A DNA stretch of 48,335 nucleotides from a virus (IMGVR_UViG_3300000292_000047), one strand, 5' to 3'; positions 11,461-46,411 are shown, numbered from the stretch's first letter. A program made the numbers and translations. The notes: generated by a model not told the origin, from the sequence alone.

Positions 11461-11483
11461 CCAAACACATGGAGTCTCGACAA

Positions 11484-12137
11484 ATGACTATCTCTGTAGG
11501 TATTTTCAACGGAAAAGGCGGCGTAACCAAATCAACAATTGCCCGTGCTTTAGCAGTTGCTTATGCAAAGGCCGGCTGGAATGTATGCCTGATCGATATG
11601 GATGTGCTTAACGGAACGGTAACGCGTTGGGTACAACGCAGAATGGCCAACAATATCGAACCTGCAATCGCGGCGCAGCCGTGCGGCACGCCATCACAAG
11701 TCCAGAAAATCATCGAATCAGAAGTATACGACCTGGTTATCGTCGATGGCGGTGCCTACGCATCTGAATCAGTACCGAAGCTCTCTGAATTTCTGGATAT
11801 GGTTATTTTGCCAACCAGATTCTCTACCGATGACCTAGAAACCACCGTTAACACAGCTCACGGCATCGTTAAAAAGGGTGTGCCAATCAAGAAAATTTGC
11901 ATGGTGTTCTCAGGCGCGGCTGAAAACGAAGCCGACTACATTGAAGCCCAAGAGTACCTAGCTAATACGCCATACTTTGTTGTCGATAAGTACATTCCCC
12001 ACAAGCCAGCTCTGAGCAAAGCTCAGGATAAGGGCTTAAGCCTCATTGAATGCTCATACGTTGCGCCACGCAAAAAGGCAGACGACGTTATTCAGGGGAT
12101 TATCAACCAGCTTGAGGCTCTGACTACTGCCGCGTAA
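11484..12137 (+). CDS. parA: ParA/ParF-type partition ATPase (alternative ATG at 11469)
   Basis: Deviant Walker A GKGGVTKST; MinD/ParA fold; GGAG SD before ATG 11484. Confidence 0.8.
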   Translation: MTISVGIFNGKGGVTKSTIARALAVAYAKAGWNVCLIDMDVLNGTVTRWVQRRMANNIEPAIAAQPCGTPSQVQKIIESEVYDLVIVDGGAYASESVPKLSEFLDMVILPTRFSTDDLETTVNTAHGIVKKGVPIKKICMVFSGAAENEADYIEAQEYLANTPYFVVDKYIPHKPALSKAQDKGLSLIECSYVAPRKKADDVIQGIINQLEALTTAA

Positions 12138-12650: not shown

Positions 12651-12674
12651 TAAAAAAGGCCCCCGAAGGGGCCT
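12651..12674. terminator. Hairpin terminator, usable on minus strand (bidirectional candidate)
   Basis: aggcccc-cgaa-ggggcct perfect stem; A-run on plus gives U-run on minus. Confidence 0.6.
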
Positions 12675-12679
12675 AATCG

Positions 12680-12802
12680 CTACTTGCTGCTAATGTTTAT
12701 CGTCACATTCAGAGCGTTATCAGTAATCTTCCAACCCTCCCCATGTGGCGTAAACAAAGCCCCAGTAACAACGATAAAAATACACATACAGTATTTTTTC
12801 AT
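12680..12802 (-). CDS. Small hydrophobic peptide (40 aa), candidate type I toxin-like or exported peptide
   Basis: MKKYCMCIFIVVTGALFTPHGEGWKITDNALNVTINISSK; ATG inside track ORF 12680-12862; terminator immediately downstream. Confidence 0.3.
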   Translation of the reverse strand: MKKYCMCIFIVVTGALFTPHGEGWKITDNALNVTINISSK

Positions 12803-13200
12803 TGTATGGCCCTTACAGGCCGTTTCACGGCATCCCCACCGACGAAAACAACGCGAGAGCAAGCACGGCTGCTTGTGCTTGCATGTACGGCAACGGAGAA
12901 TCCTCCCCTAAAGTCGGTGCCCGGGTGCGAATCGGCGGGAAGGTCCACAGGTATTTTACGATTATTTTAAGATTAGTAATAGGAAAGAAATTAAACGAAA
13001 AAACTCGTTTATTTTCACAAAATCAGTAACCTACCCACAATCTGTGAGTTTGCAGGCACAACAAGAATCACAATTTTTTGAAGCATAATAGTGGACTATT
13101 ATTACCTTTTGGGTAAAATTAACTTGCTGCTTGTGCTTGCGTGGTTGTTTATACAACGACGTTATGCTGAAAGGACCGCGAATCCGATCAGCACGAAAGA

Positions 13201-13309: not shown

Positions 13310-13392
13310 CACTTTCCGAGCCGTAGCAAAATCTACGGTCGGGATTGGAACCCCGTAGACACAATGGCGCATACCGCGTTAGCGGTTTTTTT
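13310..13392 (+). ncRNA. Candidate small structured RNA ending at intrinsic terminator, upstream of antirepressor operon
   Basis: TTGACA at 13285-13290; hairpins ccgtag/ctacgg; terminator accgc-gtta-gcggt + T7 (13373-13392); no ORF. Confidence 0.3.
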
Positions 13393-13558
13393 ATGCGTAA
13401 AGCACTGCTACACCCAAATTATGGTGGGGCGTGCGGGGGAGTCGTAAGACTCGCCGGTTCGTCATTGTGTCCGGTAGTTCCAACCCTGCACGTCTCACCA
13501 CCCAATGATTGGAACCTGACGGTGGTGAGTATCCTTAACCTTTAAGGGAATCATCACA

Positions 13559-13750
13559 ATGACAAACCTACCCCATGACTATTACGTCAACCTCGTAAAG
13601 ATCCTTCTCAAGAAAGCCTCATACGCCGATAAATTCCGCCTGGCTGAAATCATCGAGCGCGAAGCTATGCGCATCGCCAGCAACGATAACGCTGTTTCTG
13701 ACGCAAAAATCTCCCTCGTAACCAAAGTTGTTATGGGAGGTGCAAAATGA
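13559..13750 (+). CDS. Small protein translationally coupled to antirepressor
   Basis: 63 aa; stop overlaps ant start (ATGA). Confidence 0.45.
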   Translation: MTNLPHDYYVNLVKILLKKASYADKFRLAEIIEREAMRIASNDNAVSDAKISLVTKVVMGGAK

Positions 13751-14898
13751 AAACGCTTCCGATCGTTAACACCCTACAGCCTATCCTGCATAATCAGATT
13801 CCAGTAATCACAACTGAGCTACTCGCCCGCCTTTATGGAACAGAAGCAATCCGTATACAGCAAAATCACCATGAAAATAAAACTCGGTTCATTGAGGGGA
13901 AGCACTTCTTTAAAGCTGTTGGTGATGAACTCAAAAATTTGCGACTAGTTTTAAACGAGTCACAAAATGAGGTGCAAATTTCCCCCAAAACTCGCTCTCT
14001 CATCCTCTGGACAGAACGCGGGGCTGCACGTCACGCCAAAATGCTTGAAACTAACCAAGCGTGGGATGTGTTCGAACGGCTGGAAGACTGCTATTTCAAC
14101 CAGAACGCGCAAACGGCCGCGACCGTTACCGTCTCGCCAAACAATCCTCGTGAGGTTGTCGATACGCTCAACGCCAAACCGATGTTTTACATTAAGGTGT
14201 GCAACAACGAGCCACTCACAACCTCAGCCGATGTTGCCCAGGCATTCAGCACCACAAACAATTCCATCGTTATGGCCATCGATGCGTTACGCATTCCTCG
14301 TACAGCTGCGGCACGTCATTTCTTTAAAGAGCAACGACCGCTGGAAGGAAGCGACCGCGAAATAACAATCTATCGCATGACAAAAGACGGATTTACCTTG
14401 CTCATGGAAAGTATCGACGGTCCAGGCGTGAAAGATATCAAGCTGGCCTACATTGAAGCCTTTAACGCTATCAGCAGCGTGTTAAAAACACAGTACGAGC
14501 GTGATCTGGCTAAACGACTGTACCAGGAAAAAACGATTATCCGCGCGGCAACAGAGCATAATCGGCTATTAACAGAACCGAAATACAGGAAGGAACTAAT
14601 CAAGGAGTTTGACAAGGCAACAGGGAAAACCAAAGCGGCGCTAAATCTGCCAGCAATGACTCAGGAAAATGTGATATCAGCCTTACTTCTTGATCTGCTC
14701 AGAAACGCCAGAGCACTTATCAGCTTTGACGAAAACCTGAATCCTCAGCTCAAGCTACTACCACCGACAGGCAAAGTAGTCGACCAGGCTGATCACAACA
14801 GCATACTCAGCGTACTGGATGCAAACCTGCCAGCCAGGACACTACAGGATCTGATAAAAACATGTGCTGATAAGCTGGCACAGAAGAGCAGACCATAA
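13747..14898 (+). CDS. Antirepressor-type regulatory protein (ORF6N-like N-terminus + Rha domain)
   Basis: 383 aa; ITIYRMTKDGFTLLMESIDGPGVKDIKLAYIEAFN matches Rha pattern; GGAGG SD. Confidence 0.7.
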   Translation: MKTLPIVNTLQPILHNQIPVITTELLARLYGTEAIRIQQNHHENKTRFIEGKHFFKAVGDELKNLRLVLNESQNEVQISPKTRSLILWTERGAARHAKMLETNQAWDVFERLEDCYFNQNAQTAATVTVSPNNPREVVDTLNAKPMFYIKVCNNEPLTTSADVAQAFSTTNNSIVMAIDALRIPRTAAARHFFKEQRPLEGSDREITIYRMTKDGFTLLMESIDGPGVKDIKLAYIEAFNAISSVLKTQYERDLAKRLYQEKTIIRAATEHNRLLTEPKYRKELIKEFDKATGKTKAALNLPAMTQENVISALLLDLLRNARALISFDENLNPQLKLLPPTGKVVDQADHNSILSVLDANLPARTLQDLIKTCADKLAQKSRP

Positions 14899-19263: not shown

Positions 19264-20112
19264 TTAATGTTGGAGTGATTTCCAGGTCTTTCTTAACCTG
19301 TTATAACGCTGCTCAACGAGGGATCGTAAATATGCAAGGTCAGCACCAGGATACATGCCATCAGCAAATTCCTGACTAACCTCTCTGGTGATTTGATGAC
19401 GAAGTTCGGCCTCTCCCTTTTCCCGAACAAGACGCGCAGCTCTCTCCGCTGCTTTCTGTTTTGCCTTTATCTCTCTGGCCGTCTTCCTCTGACGCCATAC
19501 ATTCTCCATCTGCTCCTGAATAACAATACGCTTATAATCAGCCTCCGTTATCGCTTTTTTAAGCCGTTCGCTATTCTTCGCATTGAAGTAATTAAGTTTC
19601 TGGCTAACCGCACGTCTCCATGCTTGTTCAGTAATACCAACGGTTTCCAGCAGTTGATCACGAATCTCTATTTTCGCTGGCCAATACTGTTTATTCACCC
19701 GATCCCAGCGACGTTCATAATCAATAAAACCTAACGCTTTCAGTTGCGACAACGCCCTTGTACAGCGCGTTATAGACTTGTTCCCAGCTTCGGATACGGT
19801 AGACAGGCCGCAAAAATCAGCCAACGCCTCAGCACTAGCCAGAACCCGCTTAGAAATGATGTTTACATGGTGCAAAATCGCAGCGATCACAGCATTAATC
19901 GCCCGACGACGATGCTCGTTTATCCGGCGCTTCCGCTCTGACGGTTGATTAACGTAGAACGCAACCTCACACGTAAGATCACGCCCATTAATGCGCTGTA
20001 AAGCATCAGATAACACCAGCGGCAGCTTGTGCGTATGGTGCTTTGGAGGCTGGAACTCCGGCGACAAATTACAAACGTAAGCTGAACGTAGAGACGGCAT
20101 TGGTCTATCCAT
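19264..20112 (-). CDS. repA: IncFII-type (RepFIIA-like) replication initiator RepA; in-frame upstream ATG at 20244 possible
   Basis: RRRAINAVI and GLSTVSEAGNKSITRCTRALSQLKALGFIDYE align by eye with R100 RepA1 (RRRAIDALL, GLATESAAGKLSITRATRALTFLSELGLITYQ); ATG 20110-20112. Confidence 0.7.
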   Translation of the reverse strand: MDRPMPSLRSAYVCNLSPEFQPPKHHTHKLPLVLSDALQRINGRDLTCEVAFYVNQPSERKRRINEHRRRAINAVIAAILHHVNIISKRVLASAEALADFCGLSTVSEAGNKSITRCTRALSQLKALGFIDYERRWDRVNKQYWPAKIEIRDQLLETVGITEQAWRRAVSQKLNYFNAKNSERLKKAITEADYKRIVIQEQMENVWRQRKTAREIKAKQKAAERAARLVREKGEAELRHQITREVSQEFADGMYPGADLAYLRSLVEQRYNRLRKTWKSLQH

Positions 20113-20156
20113 ATGTTCGCTCTTGCGTCCACGGAAAACCAACGTATAATGGGAGT

Positions 20157-20237
20157 TGTCGAGGCGCCCATGGATTGTTGTTGTTGGTTTTCCGTGGATG
20201 TCGCAAGAAGCCCGCAGATTTATCTGCGGGCTTTTTG
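20157..20237 (+). ncRNA. CopA-like antisense RNA countertranscript to repA leader
   Basis: TTGCGT-N16-TATAAT at 20123-20150; strong terminator gcccgcaga-ttta-tctgcgggc + T5 at 20210-20236. Confidence 0.55.
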
Positions 20238-20710
20238 TTTCCATATCTGGTCACTTTCCAACCAGACACCCACAATCATAACCACGTTACGTGGTTTTAA
20301 GAGAACTCTACCACAACACTTTCGGTCATGCACGAAGTCTCTCACTGATCGAACGATAATCCACCAGTAAAAGGATCTAAATTGGATCTCGTTTTGCGAG
20401 CATCATACTACTGGCCTAACTCCAGTCAATGATTCCCAGCCAGAAACCTGCGGTAAACTCATCGTTCAGCAATATGCTGTCCGGCTTCAAAGATAAGGTG
20501 ACATCATCCCTTAACAGCGCGGCCAGTTCAGTTAAAGGGCTGTTCTGATTTAATGCTGGCCACTCATACCTGGTAATAAGTGGTCAGTCTTAACACTCAC
20601 CATTTGATTGCACCCGTGTTGACGATTTGTTACTGGATATCAGACACGCTGGATAGCCAGTAGAAACATACCATTAAAATTATTACAATAATTGGTCACA
20701 TGATTATCTT

Positions 20711-21274
20711 ATGCTGAATAATAAAGATATGAATATTAATGAACTTAAAGACTGTATTCACTATGAAGTAATCGGTAGCGAGCGTCCTTTCTCCTGGCGA
20801 AAGGCAATTGTTCGCGCAATAAAACATAGAAGGGTTCGTTATTTATTTTGGTGGCGCATAGCCAAATACCTTTTTGATAAAGGCGGATACTGTCGGAAGA
20901 TTGCGGGAAAAATAGAACGTTTCATTCTTGATAAATATAATGTAACAGTCCCTTTAACTGTAAATATAGGGAAAGGCTTTGATATTTCTTATCTCAACAG
21001 TGTTGTTATCGGTCACAAAGTAACAATCGGTGAAAATTGTTCAATTAAGCCCGGAGTAACTATTGGACTTCGCGGGGAATTTAATGATATGGATATTGTT
21101 ATAGGGCATAATGTGACCATTGGTTGTAATGCCACCATTCTTGGTGGCAAAGTGCGTATAGGAAACAATGTCACAATAGGTGCTCATGCATTGGTATTGC
21201 ATGATATTCCTGATGATTCAACATTCATCACTAAATTTCAGTCTGAAGTTATCTGCTCGTCCTCCCGAACATAA
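20711..21274 (+). CDS. Hexapeptide-repeat (left-handed beta-helix) acetyltransferase, moron
   Basis: 187 aa; repeated [LIV]-G-x-x-x-x hexapeptides; AT-rich relative to neighbours; 3' end overlaps convergent Tfa gene. Confidence 0.7.
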
Positions 21275-40117: not shown

Positions 40118-41974
40118 CTATATGGTTACGCCTTTACTTATAACTCTACGGCGTCTTCTACGTATACCTGACGAGTTCTGCACATACACATTACCTCGCA
40201 TTTCCTGTTCGGCAAGCCAGTTAAAATTAGGGTTCAGAATTTCCATCGCGGCAGTTGCATAGTTACGGCAATCAAGAGGCTCGTTACGCTCGTAGACTTT
40301 CACCCACTTTTCTTTTGTCTGCCCATTTTTATATTCAAATATTTTTTTCTCTGATAATAATCCTTTAAAGTATTCGGTATCATATCCTCTGTCAGAATCT
40401 AATGGGAAATGCATATAACCAGGACCAGGATCATGTAGTTTAATTCTTGCCATGATGGTCCCTTTACCATCATCAACCCCCAAATTAAACAACATAGCAC
40501 CCACACGGTTATTATTACTTGGCTTTCCTATAAATGGTAAACCTACCCCACCACGCCCCCTGATAGAGTATATTCGCCTTGATTCTCTCGGCTTAGTAAA
40601 GCGATATACCTCTGTCGTAAAATGCCCACCAGAGTCAATACAAACGGAAGAAATCTGTAATTTTCGACCGTCACGGAATGACCAGCTACGGAGTAAGTAT
40701 TCATCAAGTTGTTTCCAGACAACATCTTGTGCGGGATCACCTGGGAATATTTTATATTCTATCCCCCATGACTCCTTACCTTTTCCCCAACCGACCAATT
40801 CACAAACTAAATACGTGTCCTGTACGTCAACACCAGCACTTAACAATAAAACATCATCTGGTAAAAACTCTTCAAACCTTATTCTGCGTTGCAACAAGTA
40901 TTCAGGATCGATATCGTCTTTAGCATCCTCTTTCCATGGCTCACCCAGCTTAAGGTTAATAAACTCCATTAATCCATTTTTATCGCGGTTTCTGGTTGCT
41001 TCCGTAAATTCTTCAACCAGCTCTGACAATGCAACCCACGGGGAGTAAAGACTGTTAATATGAAAACCAACAATACCTTTAACTCCAGTATGTTCAGCTA
41101 TCCATACCCCCTTCGCCAACCAATCAACGTCTGGTTTACCAGATCCGCGCATAATCCCGCCGCACTCACAGCACTCATATCTGGCCGTTTCCGGTAACGC
41201 CTCACCTGAATCGCTCTTATCCCATCTGACTTGCGACCATTTCATCACCTGCATGGTGCCACAACATGGGCAAGGAACATGGTAGTAACGCTGATCGGAG
41301 AGCTTAAACCACTTGTGGATTTTGCTTGTTTCCTCCAAAACAGGAGTAGAAACAAAAACTTTCTTACGATTATGAAAGTTGGTAGTACGCTGAATACCTA
41401 GTTTTAGTGGGTCGCCCTCCTGCGTCACACCGTAACGATCAATCTCATCAGCTAACAGTATTCGAATTGGCCTGGATGCAAGACCTGCTGGGGAATTAGC
41501 ACCAACAAGTGCTATATATCCACCAGCGTAATGCTTCATACGTATAGTCGTGCTGGACTTTTTGGCTGCACCGCGCCCCTCTTTCCCTTCATGCAGCTTG
41601 TGTTTCAAACCAGGGGAATATTTGAACGTCGGATCAATACGCTCTTTTGAAAAAGCCTCAGCCGCCTCTACCGTTGGATAAATCATCAACTGAGGAGATG
41701 GCTCCTGATCTGCAAAGTAACCCATAACATTTAGCTGTAATTCGGATTTACCAATTTGCGAGCTACATTGCATCACTACTGTTTCTGTATCAGCGTCACC
41801 AATAACATCCATTGGTTCACGCAAATATGGCACTCGGCTTGTACGCCACGGCCCTGGCTCTGGAGACGTTCCCGGCGCTACATGACGATACTTATCAGCC
41901 CATTCGGAAACAGTTAGCCGTGATTTAGGGCGAAGCGCACGGAAAAAAGCGGTGCTCCATACTGTTTCGCCCAT
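40118..41974 (-). CDS. Terminase large subunit
   Basis: 618 aa; ATPase N-terminal region and nuclease C-terminal region; position. Confidence 0.85.
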   Translation of the reverse strand: MGETVWSTAFFRALRPKSRLTVSEWADKYRHVAPGTSPEPGPWRTSRVPYLREPMDVIGDADTETVVMQCSSQIGKSELQLNVMGYFADQEPSPQLMIYPTVEAAEAFSKERIDPTFKYSPGLKHKLHEGKEGRGAAKKSSTTIRMKHYAGGYIALVGANSPAGLASRPIRILLADEIDRYGVTQEGDPLKLGIQRTTNFHNRKKVFVSTPVLEETSKIHKWFKLSDQRYYHVPCPCCGTMQVMKWSQVRWDKSDSGEALPETARYECCECGGIMRGSGKPDVDWLAKGVWIAEHTGVKGIVGFHINSLYSPWVALSELVEEFTEATRNRDKNGLMEFINLKLGEPWKEDAKDDIDPEYLLQRRIRFEEFLPDDVLLLSAGVDVQDTYLVCELVGWGKGKESWGIEYKIFPGDPAQDVVWKQLDEYLLRSWSFRDGRKLQISSVCIDSGGHFTTEVYRFTKPRESRRIYSIRGRGGVGLPFIGKPSNNNRVGAMLFNLGVDDGKGTIMARIKLHDPGPGYMHFPLDSDRGYDTEYFKGLLSEKKIFEYKNGQTKEKWVKVYERNEPLDCRNYATAAMEILNPNFNWLAEQEMRGNVYVQNSSGIRRRRRRVISKGVTI

Positions 41975-41979
41975 GAGGT

Positions 41980-42531
41980 TTATTCTTCCTGCTTAATAAA
42001 TCGGGATTCCTGGAGCGCCTGAAGCGCAAAATTAATCTCGTCTTCAATAATGCGCTCGATCTCCCTGGCTGTTTTGCCTTCACAACGGGGAGCTGCTCTT
42101 GGAGCAATACTAAATAAGCGGCTACGCAATTCATTAGCTGCCAGAAATGCATCATCCCTGACCGCATCTTTAGCGATGAGAGAGCCTTCCTTTTCTTCAA
42201 ATTCAAGGCGTTTCAGCTTTGCCTGATAAATTTTTTCTGCGGTCTTAGCCTTGTTGAATTGCACCGCAACACCGGAAGTACCACCAGCTAATCCGGCATC
42301 ATCAGCGGGTAACTCTGGTTGTTCCGAAGATATCCCATGCCCTCTTTTTCCATTTTCAGCAGATACCTCACGACCAACCTGTCGGCTCGCTTCATAAGCC
42401 GCACTGGCTTTATCAAAATCCAGCTTGCCGCTTTTCAGCACTGGAATGCGACCGGAACGACAGAGCTTCGTAACCATTGCCGGAGAAATACCTTTCCGGC
42501 GGGCAAACTCTGACTTACTGACGATGGCCAT
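41980..42531 (-). CDS. Terminase small subunit (HTH)
   Basis: Track start TTG; ATG at 42529-42531; N-terminal HTH SKSEFARRKGISPAMVTKL. Confidence 0.55.
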   Translation of the reverse strand: MAIVSKSEFARRKGISPAMVTKLCRSGRIPVLKSGKLDFDKASAAYEASRQVGREVSAENGKRGHGISSEQPELPADDAGLAGGTSGVAVQFNKAKTAEKIYQAKLKRLEFEEKEGSLIAKDAVRDDAFLAANELRSRLFSIAPRAAPRCEGKTAREIERIIEDEINFALQALQESRFIKQEE

Positions 42532-43121
42532 TACTTGCAACCATTAGCAAGATACTGAACAAATCCCTCATGCGTTTCATGCGCGTCGTGGTACTGACGA
42601 TAAACATCCAGCAACAATGCAATTTCCATATCCGTCGCGGGAATACGTTCTTTATCAATAGCCAGGTACTTAATTTGAACAACAGGGGAAGAATTATCGT
42701 CTTCTTCCTGCGGCTGTTCATCGCTTAACATTTCGTCAAGCTCTGCATCATTAAACCCAAGCAGATCAATATCAAAATCATCATCCATTAACTCTTTGAC
42801 TTCTTCGGCCAGAAGCTGCATATCCCAGCCAGCATTTAAGGCCAGCTTGTTATCTGCAATCCTGTAAGCCTTCTTCTGTTTTTCAGAAAGGTTACTCAAC
42901 CGAATCGCCGGAACTTTATCCATTTCCAGAATTTCGGCTGCTGCAAGCCGACCATGCCCCGCAATCAGTTCATTCTTTTCATCGATCAGCACAGGATTAG
43001 TGAAACCGAACTCACGGATACTGTTCACCAACTGTTCAACTTGCTCATCTGAATGAGTCCGTGAATTTTTGGCATATCTGAGCAGCTTACCGACTGGTAA
43101 ATATTCGATTTTTAGAGTCAT
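42531..43121 (-). CDS. ParB-like nuclease domain protein
   Basis: 196 aa; ParB N-terminal fold motifs (LIAGHGRLAAA); paralog of 45788-46411. Confidence 0.7.
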   Translation of the reverse strand: MTLKIEYLPVGKLLRYAKNSRTHSDEQVEQLVNSIREFGFTNPVLIDEKNELIAGHGRLAAAEILEMDKVPAIRLSNLSEKQKKAYRIADNKLALNAGWDMQLLAEEVKELMDDDFDIDLLGFNDAELDEMLSDEQPQEEDDNSSPVVQIKYLAIDKERIPATDMEIALLLDVYRQYHDAHETHEGFVQYLANGCK

Positions 43122-43678
43122 TTTTTAACCACCATAACACAACAGGTTAAAGAAAACTGTTTAACTTATTGATACTAAAAGAGAAAAATGACGATCTTTT
43201 TACTCATAAAAAATCACACAAACCAGCATAATTATCTGATTTTATTAAGTTTTTATAAGTAAAAAGGATCTTGCGATGGTGTTTTGGTTAAAAGATTGGA
43301 TGTATTTGCATGATTTATAACGATTTTTATCAGAACAACATCACATTGGTTAAAGATCTGCGCGTATCTTGATGATCTAAAAGAAAATTTTCTACTTTCT
43401 TTTTACCAGCACAAATACAGCAAAAAATCACGTTTTCCCGATATTTTTCAATGAGATGAGTAAATTTCTTTTACCGCAACTTTTAACCTAACTTTTTTCA
43501 CGTTTAGCTAGCCGAACATCGGGGTTCGAATGACCCGCATCCAACGCTTTTGGCCAGAAGGACCCAATTCTGCCGGACGATGAAACGATGCTCGTGCTCA
43601 CCCACAGACAGCCAGCGAGCGACGCTACAGAACACAGTGAATACACCCTGCATAACAACACCATCAACCACACGATGA

Positions 43679-44398
43679 TTAACGAGAGAACGTCTTAGAA
43701 AGAATGTCATCAATAGCCTTTGTGACTTCATCAGCAAACGCATCCTCACCAGCACGTAGCGCCACGCCATGCCAATCAAGACGCTGCGAATAGTTAGGTT
43801 GCTGGATAAACGTAAGGATCAACGTAGGACGCCGCCCAACGCGCTGCCAGACGCCTGGTTGAAGCGGGTTACTTGTACCAGGTCGAACAACAAAAAACTC
43901 CGTAGGCTTGCCCTGACGGCGATTTTGATGCGCATCTCGCTGAACTCTTAGGCCAGATAAGACCTGCTGTAATTGCCCCCGCGAAATATTCCCGTATTTG
44001 TCCAGCTTTGCGCCGGGACCAGGAGCAAGCTGCCAGCCGTTAGGCAAATATCCACCAGCCCTTAGCGCCCCTTCTGAGCGTTTGTACTGTCGTTGGCCAC
44101 CTTCGATTTGCGGAGTCAACGTTACAGGGGCTGGCGTTCCTCCCCATTCACGAGCATACACAATGGCTGTAGGATCACTCTTCTTTGCGGCCAAAACGTA
44201 AGTAGAGTTCTGAATCCACGGCGTGGGCCTGTCAAATACCCGATTAATTTCATTCTTAATCGCAGCCTGAGAAGCCTTTGCCGTTCTGGTTGCCGCAAGC
44301 GCCATTGCGAATGGCAATTCACGTTCTTCAAGGCGCTGGAGTTGTCGTTGAATATCCTGAGAAGAAAAATCCATCTTTATCTCAATTCTGTCAGCCAC
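43679..44398 (-). CDS. Hypothetical protein
   Basis: 239 aa; GTG start with AGGAGG SD. Confidence 0.45.
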   Translation of the reverse strand: MADRIEIKMDFSSQDIQRQLQRLEERELPFAMALAATRTAKASQAAIKNEINRVFDRPTPWIQNSTYVLAAKKSDPTAIVYAREWGGTPAPVTLTPQIEGGQRQYKRSEGALRAGGYLPNGWQLAPGPGAKLDKYGNISRGQLQQVLSGLRVQRDAHQNRRQGKPTEFFVVRPGTSNPLQPGVWQRVGRRPTLILTFIQQPNYSQRLDWHGVALRAGEDAFADEVTKAIDDILSKTFSR

Positions 44399-44414: not shown

Positions 44415-45788
44415 CTACTTAATCAACGGCCGGAAAGCCGCCAGCACATCATCAGATCGTCCGATTGTTGAACCACCAGGCAACGGCAACTCAAACTCAA
44501 AACGAACAGCTTTCTCCAGACTCTCCCAGCGAAGAGAATCATCGTTAATAACGTGCAAATACCAGCTCTTACAGTTGAATATTGACCGCTTAATCCTGAA
44601 ACCATGTACACGACACAACTGCTTCACTTCATCATCAGAGTGAAACTTCTGGTAAAACCAGTGCCCCTTCCGGTACAACGCGGTAAAACCGTTATGATCA
44701 ATAAAATAAAGCCGGCTTTTGGAACTCGCCGCTTGTGTTTGCTTCAGGACTGTTTCCAGCTCTCCACGGCTACGACCAGAAAAGAATATTGACCCACCAG
44801 CTTTACACAGGCCTTTCAGAACCGTCAGAACAGACCATTCAGCCTCGACACTATCGACCGAGTTCAAAACGCTATCGCAAATCACGTAGTCGTAACGCCC
44901 TCGCGTTTTTAAGTCGTCCACCAGCGTATCAATCATCCGGTTTGTTGCGGTCCTATCCAGAGTGTTTCCAGCGCCCTTACGGCGGAAAAGCTCGAGATCA
45001 TGCAGGTTATATCCCTTTGCCCTGAGCATTCGCGCGTAGTCTCCCTGCCCCGAACCAAAATCAATTCCTCTTGGCGTCTTGGCAATGATCGGGAGGATCA
45101 ACGACTCATACAGGTTTGATTTCAGGCTGCCACCATTACGCAACCGCATAAGCTGCGCATACGTCTGGATGTATGTTGTTTTCTCCAGATGAGAATACTC
45201 AAATACACCATAAGTTTTATTCAGATAACTTTGGTATTTTTCCTTCTCAACATCAGGGATCACAAACACCGTTAGCGGTGTGCGCGTCATTTTCGCTGCT
45301 AATGCATACTGAGCACAGTGAATAACCTCACCAGACTGAGTAGCAACACAACCACCCCACGGACCATACTTGATAACCAGTTCCGCTATGTTCTTTCGAA
45401 CATATGCCATTTTCGCGCGCATATTGCCTGAGATCTGGCTTGCCGATACCTGAACAAAACCATGCTTATCTTCCAGACCGGACACCCTGCAACGCTCATC
45501 TCCGCTATCAAAATCCGTTCCGTTATGCAGTTGGTTAAACCGTACTTCGTCGTATACCGTCGTTTCACAGGGCAACACATACACCGCAGCACGCGTTATT
45601 CCCAACTTACGTAGCGCCTTCGTCCTTTGGTGTCCCGCCACCAGCAAATCGCCGCGCACTATCAATGGCTTCACAAGCCCCAGCTCCCTGACGCTTTCCG
45701 CCAGCCTCGCAAGATCATCCTCACCGATAAAACGCGGGTTATATTCCGCGCCGCGTAGGTGCGTTATGTCGTAATTCAGGTGAAGCAT
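44415..45788 (-). CDS. ParB-like domain fused to class I SAM-dependent methyltransferase
   Basis: N-terminal ParB-like region (LVAGHQRTKAL); C-terminal GIDFGSGQGDYA motif I; ATG 45786-45788 with GGAGG SD, TGATG coupling to upstream gene. Confidence 0.7.
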   Translation of the reverse strand: MLHLNYDITHLRGAEYNPRFIGEDDLARLAESVRELGLVKPLIVRGDLLVAGHQRTKALRKLGITRAAVYVLPCETTVYDEVRFNQLHNGTDFDSGDERCRVSGLEDKHGFVQVSASQISGNMRAKMAYVRKNIAELVIKYGPWGGCVATQSGEVIHCAQYALAAKMTRTPLTVFVIPDVEKEKYQSYLNKTYGVFEYSHLEKTTYIQTYAQLMRLRNGGSLKSNLYESLILPIIAKTPRGIDFGSGQGDYARMLRAKGYNLHDLELFRRKGAGNTLDRTATNRMIDTLVDDLKTRGRYDYVICDSVLNSVDSVEAEWSVLTVLKGLCKAGGSIFFSGRSRGELETVLKQTQAASSKSRLYFIDHNGFTALYRKGHWFYQKFHSDDEVKQLCRVHGFRIKRSIFNCKSWYLHVINDDSLRWESLEKAVRFEFELPLPGGSTIGRSDDVLAAFRPLIK

Positions 45789-46411
45789 CAGCACACCTCC
45801 CCAGCCAGCAATGCGGATACAAATCCGATATAGCTGCCATTATCATCAACATAACGAGACACCGCGCAGTCAAAACGATCCGCTTCCTCATCCGTTGCCG
45901 GGATTTTATGACCTCCAAATGACAGGTACTGAACTTTTACGCCTGATTTGGCCTCATCCTTCTCAAATGGGATATCCATACCCTCTGTGTCATCGTAGAC
46001 CGCCGCACTCAATAAGTTATCCAGTTCGCGCTGAGTAAAACCAATTGAGTCCAGAGCAAAATCATCGGCCGCAAGATCTGCAAGCTCCGCGCTTAACAAC
46101 TCTTCATCCCAACCAGCATTCAGCGGAATACGGTTGTCGGCCAGACGATATGCCTTCTTCTGATTCTCCGTTAGCCCAGCCAGAACAATGCAGGGAACAT
46201 CATCCATCCCCAACTGAGTGGCCGCAGCAATTCGACCATGACCAGCAATTACAACGTTGTTCTCGTCTATCAGGATCGGATTAGTCCATCCGTACTCCTG
46301 TATGCTGGCAACAATCTGATCTACCTGCTCCACGGAGTGTGTGCGAGCGTTCTTTTCATAACCAATCAACACAGAAAGTGGTAAAGAAACCACATTAAGA
46401 TGTTTTGTCAT
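45788..46411 (-). CDS. ParB-like nuclease domain protein
   Basis: 207 aa; VIAGHGRIAAA; shares C-terminal region with 42531-43121. Confidence 0.7.
   Translation of the reverse strand: MTKHLNVVSLPLSVLIGYEKNARTHSVEQVDQIVASIQEYGWTNPILIDENNVVIAGHGRIAAATQLGMDDVPCIVLAGLTENQKKAYRLADNRIPLNAGWDEELLSAELADLAADDFALDSIGFTQRELDNLLSAAVYDDTEGMDIPFEKDEAKSGVKVQYLSFGGHKIPATDEEADRFDCAVSRYVDDNGSYIGFVSALLAGEVC

Follow-up and report, generated by a model that had tools for sequence, protein, structure and literature searches.

In phage lambda, the cos site is laid out in the order cosQ - cosN - I2 (an AT-rich static bend) - R3 - I1 (the IHF site) - R2 - R1, the small terminase subunit (TerS) binding the R repeats and IHF bending I1 with R3 facing R2 (PMC4856287). 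The lambda terminase cuts at 47 ± 2 bp from an R site, and plasmid inserts place the end of cosB roughly 180 bp from the nick (PMC4856287). In the Serratia phage vB_SspM_BZS1, 12-nt 5' cohesive ends were established by PhageTerm and by PCR across the joined site (PMC7556043). For a group of Vibrio myoviruses comprising X29, phi 2, Rostov 7, vB_VpaM_XM1, PVP-XSN, R19R and R20L, the name 'Weiviridae' has been proposed (PMC11432961). Defined DNA ends were published for phage X29, as opposed to phage 24, which is permuted; X29 was also described with integrases, and neither plasmid genes nor a plasmid stage are reported for these Vibrio phages. In the literature on the X29 and XM1 Vibrio phages, no statement on a cos site was found, and neither the XM1 paper nor the one in which vB_EcoM-613R2 is named contains anything on termini.

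The region analysed here is an intergenic gap of 557 bp in a viral sequence of 48,335 nt (IMGVR_UViG_3300000292_000047), the whole of which is referred to as the window. The gap is very probably the cos site of a temperate myovirus living as a plasmid of about 48 kb, read on the minus strand. Such a lambda-style cos site is of a known kind, the long repeat-rich cosB and the conserved ParB_N gene being mildly unusual. Of 5426 complete E. coli genomes, 72 match the gap with 97–99.8% identity, and in 71 of these 72 it lies on a plasmid of 47–57 kb, among them the plasmid of strain ATCC 25922, for which the RefSeq annotation gives a full myovirus gene set together with RepA, ParA and a toxin-antitoxin pair. 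These plasmid matches and this annotation show that the window is a phage-plasmid.

All the genes around the gap are encoded on the minus strand, in the order 239-aa gene, gap, ParB_N gene, TerS, TerL, and then a small DUF6148 gene and a portal-sized gene beyond TerL in the direction of the operon (coordinates in the table below). The limits of the gap in the original prediction are exact, the ParB_N gene starting at 43121 and the 239-aa gene stopping at 43679, and its location ahead of a ParB-terminase operon is likewise correct. The TerS gene overlaps the stop codon of the ParB_N gene by 1 nt; its product shows helix-turn-helix-like matches in its N-terminal part (residues 5–39), and sequence searches with TerS against the Pfam Phage_Nu1 family and the PDB Nu1 domain gave no match. 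The identity of the two terminase genes is supported by the data, TerS matching phrog_57 and TerL carrying the ATPase and nuclease domains of lambda GpA in Pfam. The 239-aa gene matches PHROG 1924 'minor tail protein' (E=2.5e-97) and, despite this label, lies across the cos from the tail module. Three ParB_N-domain genes bracket the cos, all on the minus strand: a 207-aa paralogue (45788–46411), a 459-aa ParB_N-methyltransferase fusion (44415–45794) and the 196-aa gene that follows the gap, the 207-aa and 196-aa proteins both matching phrog_620 strongly. In a relative (locus L028, 6260–6600, on the same contig as L099), the ParB_N gene behind the cos keeps its first ~60 codons and continues into unrelated sequence, which suggests a recombination joint within the gene.

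Table. Features of the gap and of the adjacent genes. Positions from the nick are numbered with 43535 as +1 and read on the minus strand; functional names are proposed assignments.
Feature	Coordinates	Position from nick	Strand	Remark
239-aa gene, upstream of gap	43679–44398		-	without Pfam domain
Whole intergenic gap	43122–43678		- (operon direction)	between 239-aa gene and ParB_N gene
Putative cosQ-like box TTGGGTCCT	43559–43567	-24 to -32	-	conserved; placed like lambda cosQ, suggesting the same function
Putative cosN core GCG^GGTCATTCGAAC^CCCG	43520–43538		-	unique in window
Proposed nick, minus strand	43536/43535		-	
Probable 12-nt cohesive end GGTCATTCGAAC	43524–43535		-	Yersinia record openings; XM1 12-nt terminal repeat
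Proposed nick, plus strand	43523/43524		+	
Spacer, cosN to first repeat	43489–43523		-	resembles lambda I2; alignment of relatives
Repeat S1, GGTTAAAA	43481–43488	+48 to +55	-	invariant in all enteric relatives
Repeat S2, GGTAAAAG	43468–43475	+61 to +68	-	conserved
Repeat S3, GGTAAAAA	43400–43407	+129 to +136	-	conserved in most relatives
Repeat S4, GGTTAAAG	43348–43355	+181	+ (inverted)	conserved as TTTAACC or TTTTACC
Repeat S5, GGTTAAAA	43286–43293	+243	+ (inverted)	poorly conserved (TTTTTACTC in relatives)
Repeat S6	43258–43265	+271	+ (inverted)	outer end of palindrome
Imperfect palindrome, 71 bp, ends GATCCTTTTTAC...GTAAAAAGATC (S6, S7)	43196–43266			31-nt arms, 77% complementary
IHF consensus site 1, AATCAGATAATTA (consensus WATCARNNNNTTR)	43229–43241	+295 to +307	-	inside palindrome
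Repeat S7	43197–43204	+332	-	outer end of palindrome
IHF consensus site 2, TATCAATAAGTTA	43162–43174	+362 to +374	-	kept in one related lineage, lost in another
Repeat S8, GGTTAAAG	43145–43152	+384	+ (inverted)	conserved as TTTAACC or TTTTACC
Repeat S9, GGTTAAAA	43123–43130	+406	-	not conserved
ParB_N-domain protein, 196 aa, first gene after cos	42531–43121		-	59% identical to first gene of Vibrio phage X29
Small terminase subunit TerS, 183 aa from ATG at 42531	41980–42531		-	PHROGs phrog_57, E=7e-42
Large terminase subunit TerL, 618 aa, lambda gpA type	40118–41974		-	PF05876, E=7e-76; PF20454, E=1e-84

The evidence for the virion DNA ends comes from the deposited records of virion-derived relatives rather than from raw reads of this element. 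Three phages isolated on Y. pestis EV76 (vB_YpM_39, vB_YpM_41 and vB_YpM_44) have a TerL 100% identical to that of the window and a gap 97–99% identical. The records of vB_YpM_39 and vB_YpM_41 end with ...GGATGCG and start with GGTCATTCGAAC..., which corresponds to an opening at 43536|43535, and the record of vB_YpM_44 ends with ...GCGGGTCATTCGAAC and starts with CCCGATG..., which corresponds to an opening at 43524|43523. The two points are exactly 12 nt apart and lie at the centre of a conserved island. The Yersinia records carry the label circular, and no account of how they were opened was found in a paper; a literature search gave neither a paper for these three phages nor a description of this cos site. 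An arbitrary opening is unlikely, given that the three Yersinia records and six Vibrio records agree, and both the two end positions and their 12-nt spacing are supported by these data.

The nearest other isolated phages are the Vibrio myoviruses, which have a homologous packaging module with the same ParB_N-TerS-TerL order behind the cos (63–65% identity to the window for TerL, 59% for ParB and 43% for TerS). Their cos region can be aligned with that of the window over the cosQ-like GGGTCCT, the cut region GCG^GGT...C^CCCG and TCGTCTAGCT, whereas the cohesive end itself (GGTGCTCGCGAC) differs. The record of Rostov 7 reads through the aligned site (...TTTGGGTCCT...GAGCGGGTGCTCTCGACCCCGCCTTTCGTCTAGCT...). 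With GGTGCTCGCGAC at its start and ...GGTGCTCGCGACA at its end, that of XM1 carries at the homologous place a terminal repeat of 12 nt, such as the filling-in of cohesive ends would produce. The left nick is the opening point of the PVP-XSN and R20L records; the opening lies 11 nt further in for X29 and phi 2, and 10 nt further in for R19R. The Vibrio overhang length is uncertain by 1–2 nt when taken from the Vibrio records alone.

The original prediction had considered the gap as a candidate pac or cos site. The second term is retained, the record ends lying inside the gap at 12 nt from each other and the Vibrio ends being homologous, and the first is abandoned: a cos rather than a pac site is indicated by the fixed record ends and by a large terminase of the lambda gpA type, and a headful site was also rejected on account of the defined ends of X29. 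Phage BZS1 likewise combines a gpA-type TerL (37.5% identical) with 12-nt cohesive ends; it differs by an unrelated overhang (GCATTGCGCGCC), by an integrated prophage and by a ParB-like gene that is not described as adjacent to its cos. Since TerL is of the gpA type and the BZS1 ends are 5' ends, the overhangs of the window element, of sequence GGTCATTCGAAC, would be 5' overhangs.

The conservation around these ends was followed in an alignment of 16 distinct upstream regions (~69% nucleotide identity) from relatives gathered via the ParB_N protein. The data support a single long conserved block in the gap, a nearly invariant island of ~90 bp at 43568–43478 (minus strand: TTGGGTCCTTCTGGCCAAAAGCGTTGGATGCGGGTCATTCGAACCCCGATGTTCGGCTAGCTAAACGTGAAAAAAGTTAGGTTAAAAGT), which spans the cut, the rest of the gap drifting. 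Within it, the cosN core is invariant across the 16 relatives save for one substitution in one of them. The cut site is located in the GC-richer and most conserved part of the gap (43520–43538), and not in its AT-rich part. The window contains the 18-mer GCGGGTCATTCGAACCCC only once, and a 13-mer taken from it recurs on a distant metagenome contig upstream of a ParB_N-methylase fusion gene. The GGGTCCT of the cosQ-like box is invariant in the enteric and Vibrio relatives with a constant spacing of 22–23 nt to the nick and, together with GGGT....CG.AC, is kept in the Vibrio phages and in the distant metagenome contig L032. The spacer that follows cosN holds a conserved box, TCGnCTAGCT (43515–43506), and an A6 tract (43498–43493), which together span +21 to +43. 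The twofold symmetry of cosN is weak, ~5 of 9 mirrored positions being complementary around the 12-mer when scored by eye, and complementary G/C pairs are found at ±6, 7 and 9 in both the enteric and the Vibrio sequences. An overhang of 13–14 nt, deduced from this symmetry, was dropped as the record ends give 12.

Metagenome contig ends were also considered. IMG/VR was scanned by exact pattern for contigs that begin with GGTCATTCGAACCC; of the 35 matches, none is at a contig end and seven are chance matches within unrelated coding DNA. The scan is uninformative either way because the close relatives in this database are isolate genomes with the cos joined. Among 24 metagenome-derived ParB_N loci, 10 have a contig end at most about 520 bp upstream of the gene; unrelated sequence stands at most of these ends and coding DNA in some of the flanks, and this enrichment gives weak support to a cos. 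A high-GC metagenome contig (L089, 1130–1220) contains the arrangement GGGTCCTCC...CG|GGTCATTCGAACCC, that is, the same 15-mer core with a cosQ-like GGGTCCT box. It was discounted as evidence, the next gene being a Clp-protease/capsid fusion and a gpA terminase being absent, and could be either a chance match or a cos core common to an unrelated head module.

Between the conserved island and the ParB_N gene, the gap has a very different composition. The earlier description of the whole gap as AT-rich is valid for 43122–43505 (28.4% GC), which is the lowest-GC 384-bp stretch of the window (mean 44.5% GC), and is not valid for 43506–43678 (54.3% GC). The A-tracts reported at the same time are confirmed: they comprise 11 runs of at least five A or T, the maximum of the window (median 2), and are phased, with autocorrelation peaks at ~11, 21 and 32 bp. 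The ggttaaa(g/a) motif is also truly enriched, but the positions first given for it (43136, 43290 and 43339) are off by 4–9 bp. GGTTAAAR is found on the plus strand at 43145, 43286 and 43348, and on the minus strand at 43123 and 43481, the latter two having escaped the original prediction. The gap thus holds 5 of the 7 copies of the whole window, and in its AT-rich part these 5 copies compare with 0.07 expected, a number reached in none of 2000 dinucleotide shuffles. The looser form RGTWAAAR gives nine sites (S1 to S9) against 0.5 expected, all on the gene side of the nick, the last of which directly precedes the ParB_N start codon (+415) and overlaps the ribosome-binding region. In an unbiased count, the most frequent 7-mer between cosN and ParB differs from one lineage to another (GGTTAAA here, GGTAAAA in a sister lineage and GTTAACA in the Vibrio phages), which fits a binding site changing along with its protein.

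The IHF consensus WATCARNNNNTTR is observed twice in the gap for 0.12 expected (P ~0.01). In the relatives, the consensus letters of site 1 are kept and its four N positions vary (ATAA, ACAA, TGTA, TCAA or TCGA), as expected for a real IHF site. Four GATC sites lie in the AT-rich arm (43193, 43267, 43355 and 43374; ~1 expected, P ~0.016), three of them at most 2 nt away from a repeat (S4, S6 and S7), and the pair found at the palindrome ends is conserved in relatives; the element encodes an MT-A70 methyltransferase as well as the ParB_N-methyltransferase fusion. In IMG/VR, a contig from an isolate genome (IMGVR_UViG_2657245570_000004, locus L005, position 1) breaks 115 nt upstream of the ParB_N start, at the equivalent of ~43236 near the centre of the palindrome, where the inverted repeat has probably interrupted the assembly.

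Because of the repeats, the first of which is at +48, the IHF consensus sites, the phased A-tracts and a layout similar to that of lambda, we infer that the AT-rich arm is cosB, a candidate terminase-binding and bending arm; the GGTTAAAR repeats and the A-tracts would fit such an arm and not the cut site. The likeness to lambda comprises a large terminase of the gpA family and 12-nt cohesive ends, a conserved box ~25–30 nt before the nick on the last-packaged side, an A-tract spacer after the nick, a first repeat at a distance of ~47–48 nt from it, inverted repeats with an IHF consensus between them, and terminase genes directly downstream. In contrast, the two cos sites are without sequence similarity, nine candidate repeats spread over ~370 bp replace the three R sites of lambda, a ParB_N gene separates cosB from the small-subunit gene, TerS falls outside Pfam Phage_Nu1, the symmetry of cosN is weak, and the host replicon is a plasmid prophage. 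The cosB arm is also longer, ~415 bp against roughly 180 bp in lambda (PMC4856287). The Vibrio phages have a short arm of ~140 nt, in which GTTAACA is repeated five or six times, always in the same orientation, from about +50 onwards; the enteric arm exceeds the Vibrio arm by ~260 bp.

By analogy with lambda, TerS, probably with the help of host IHF and of the intrinsic bends, would bind the repeat array (cosB, 43122 to about 43488), and this binding would place the large subunit, of the gpA type, at a distance of 47 nt on cosN. The large subunit would then nick the two strands 12 nt apart, at 43536/43535 on the minus strand and at 43523/43524 on the plus strand, and the separation of the strands would leave virion ends with complementary 12-nt overhangs, GGTCATTCGAAC and GTTCGAATGACC. 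Packaging would begin at the cosB end and take up ParB, TerS and TerL ahead of the head and tail genes, moving towards decreasing window coordinates, and would halt at the next cos of the concatemer, where the box TTGGGTCCT (43567–43559) may act like lambda cosQ.

The original prediction had also proposed a late promoter, for which the scans gave no positive evidence. The AT-rich arm could in principle be an activator-dependent late promoter of the ParB-TerS-TerL-head operon, the palindrome and IHF serving as operator and architecture, and such a function would be compatible with a cos. The arm lies directly upstream of the packaging operon, it is the most AT-rich DNA of the window and is bent, it contains a conserved palindrome around an IHF consensus, and its excess of ~260 bp over the Vibrio arm may carry an additional function. 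However, no sigma-70-like site (-35/-10 with 16–18 nt spacing) occurs on either strand of 42900–43900, where shuffled sequences have 2.1 on average, no TGT-N12-ACA dyad of the P2/186 type occurs in 43100–43700, and no -10-like element is conserved in the alignment of the 16 relatives. Moreover, the scan for intrinsic terminators found none ending the upstream genes of the same strand, so that read-through across the cos, as in lambda late transcription, would suffice. A late promoter in the arm is consequently considered unlikely.

The proximity of the ParB_N genes raises the question of which protein occupies the repeats. Instead of TerS, the downstream ParB_N protein or its two upstream paralogues could load on them in a parS-like manner, for packaging or for segregation. 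Three genes of this type flank the gap, their domain is related to the N-terminal domains of ParB, Noc and Spo0J, and the cos-ParB-TerS-TerL order is kept from the enteric to the Vibrio phages. In Pfam, the 196-aa protein nevertheless shows the ParB_N domain only, with no recognised helix-turn-helix for DNA binding, whereas TerS has one (residues 5–39). In addition, ParA (11469–12137) and the IncFII-type RepA (19264–20244) are both more than 23 kb from the gap, and the same kind of array is present in the Vibrio phages, which are described with integrases and for which no plasmid stage is reported. We therefore regard ParB_N loading as rather improbable, and TerS as the probable ligand of the repeats.

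A related and equally speculative proposal, to which we also give little credit, is that the ParB_N protein is a part of the packaging machine, for example a nucleotide-dependent clamp or a nuclease that loads on the GGTTAAAR-type array and aids the gpA-type terminase in recognising, cutting or holding the cos. HK97-type cos phages encode HNH accessory nucleases beside their terminase genes, and the present case is similar in that a small gene of a nuclease superfamily is conserved beside the terminase genes of a cos phage; it differs by its ParB_N/sulfiredoxin-fold domain and by the gpA-type terminase. The gpA-type terminase of lambda is not known to need such a helper, and a literature search on ParB-like proteins in packaging returned nothing relevant. 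If the proposal were true, the long cosB arm would be a loading platform for the ParB_N protein, a ParB-fold accessory factor with a role like that of the HNH helpers.

On a plasmid prophage, an AT-rich region with short repeats could also be a replication origin, with iterons and an unwinding region, or a centromere. Short repeats, AT-richness, IHF sites and an excess of GATC (four for ~1 expected) are indeed common to many origins. This reading is however very improbable here: no initiator gene is nearby, RepA and ParA being encoded elsewhere, GGTTAAAR is not clustered near the rep and par genes, the ends of the virion DNA coincide with the element, and the same architecture is found in the Vibrio relatives, for which no plasmid stage is reported.

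An unannotated small gene, a tRNA-like element or a small RNA is in our view extremely improbable. Small ORFs of 33–91 aa are present inside the gap, two of which (61 and 91 aa) overlap 43488–43779, but they cross the GC-rich segment next to the upstream gene, in which indels of lengths not divisible by 3 distinguish the relatives and break these ORFs. In agreement with the initial claim that the gap is free of ORFs, RefSeq annotates a feature (a 'hypothetical protein') in only one homologue among the E. coli matches listed. The string GGTTCGAAT (43523–43531) is a classic tRNA T-arm sequence. The tRNA-like reading was rejected, as ARAGORN detects neither a tRNA nor a tmRNA in the gap, the Rfam search of the gap gives no match at E ≤ 1, and the string belongs to the cohesive end itself.

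Outside the packaging region, the accessory half of the element is mosaic, only 62–64% of window positions 1–25000 being common to the Yersinia phages with ~97.5% identity. A hexapeptide acetyltransferase gene (20711–21274, plus strand) lies between repA and the tail-fibre genes, and the tail-fibre region matches phage P2 in part, with ~94% identity. In Rfam, isrK (13320–13392, plus) and C4 antisense RNA (13417–13505, plus) are found directly upstream of an ORF6N/Rha-domain gene (13747–14898, plus), an order which resembles the c4-ant module of P1/P7 immI, and a full-length match to ryfA (12652–12948, minus) adjoins this region. ARAGORN detects a tRNA-Met (CAT) at 1009–1084 on the minus strand; at what is apparently the corresponding position of the ATCC 25922 plasmid, RefSeq calls a tRNA-Ile, a label that would fit a lysidine-modified CAT anticodon.

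The location of the cos fixes the ends of the virion chromosome for a phage-plasmid that occurs in 72 of the 5426 complete E. coli genomes, that of the quality-control strain ATCC 25922 among them, and that forms infectious particles plating on Yersinia pestis; with the ends fixed, the natural gene order and the packaging direction would follow. A short segment at ~43450–43600, with cosN, the first repeats and the cosQ-like box, is indicated as what another replicon would require in order to be packaged and transduced by this phage, perhaps along with a larger share of the ~450-bp region. The deposited relatives, now opened at several points, could be annotated consistently. The cos module appears common to the enteric phage-plasmids and to the Vibrio X29 group, the ParB_N gene always standing between the cos and the terminase genes.
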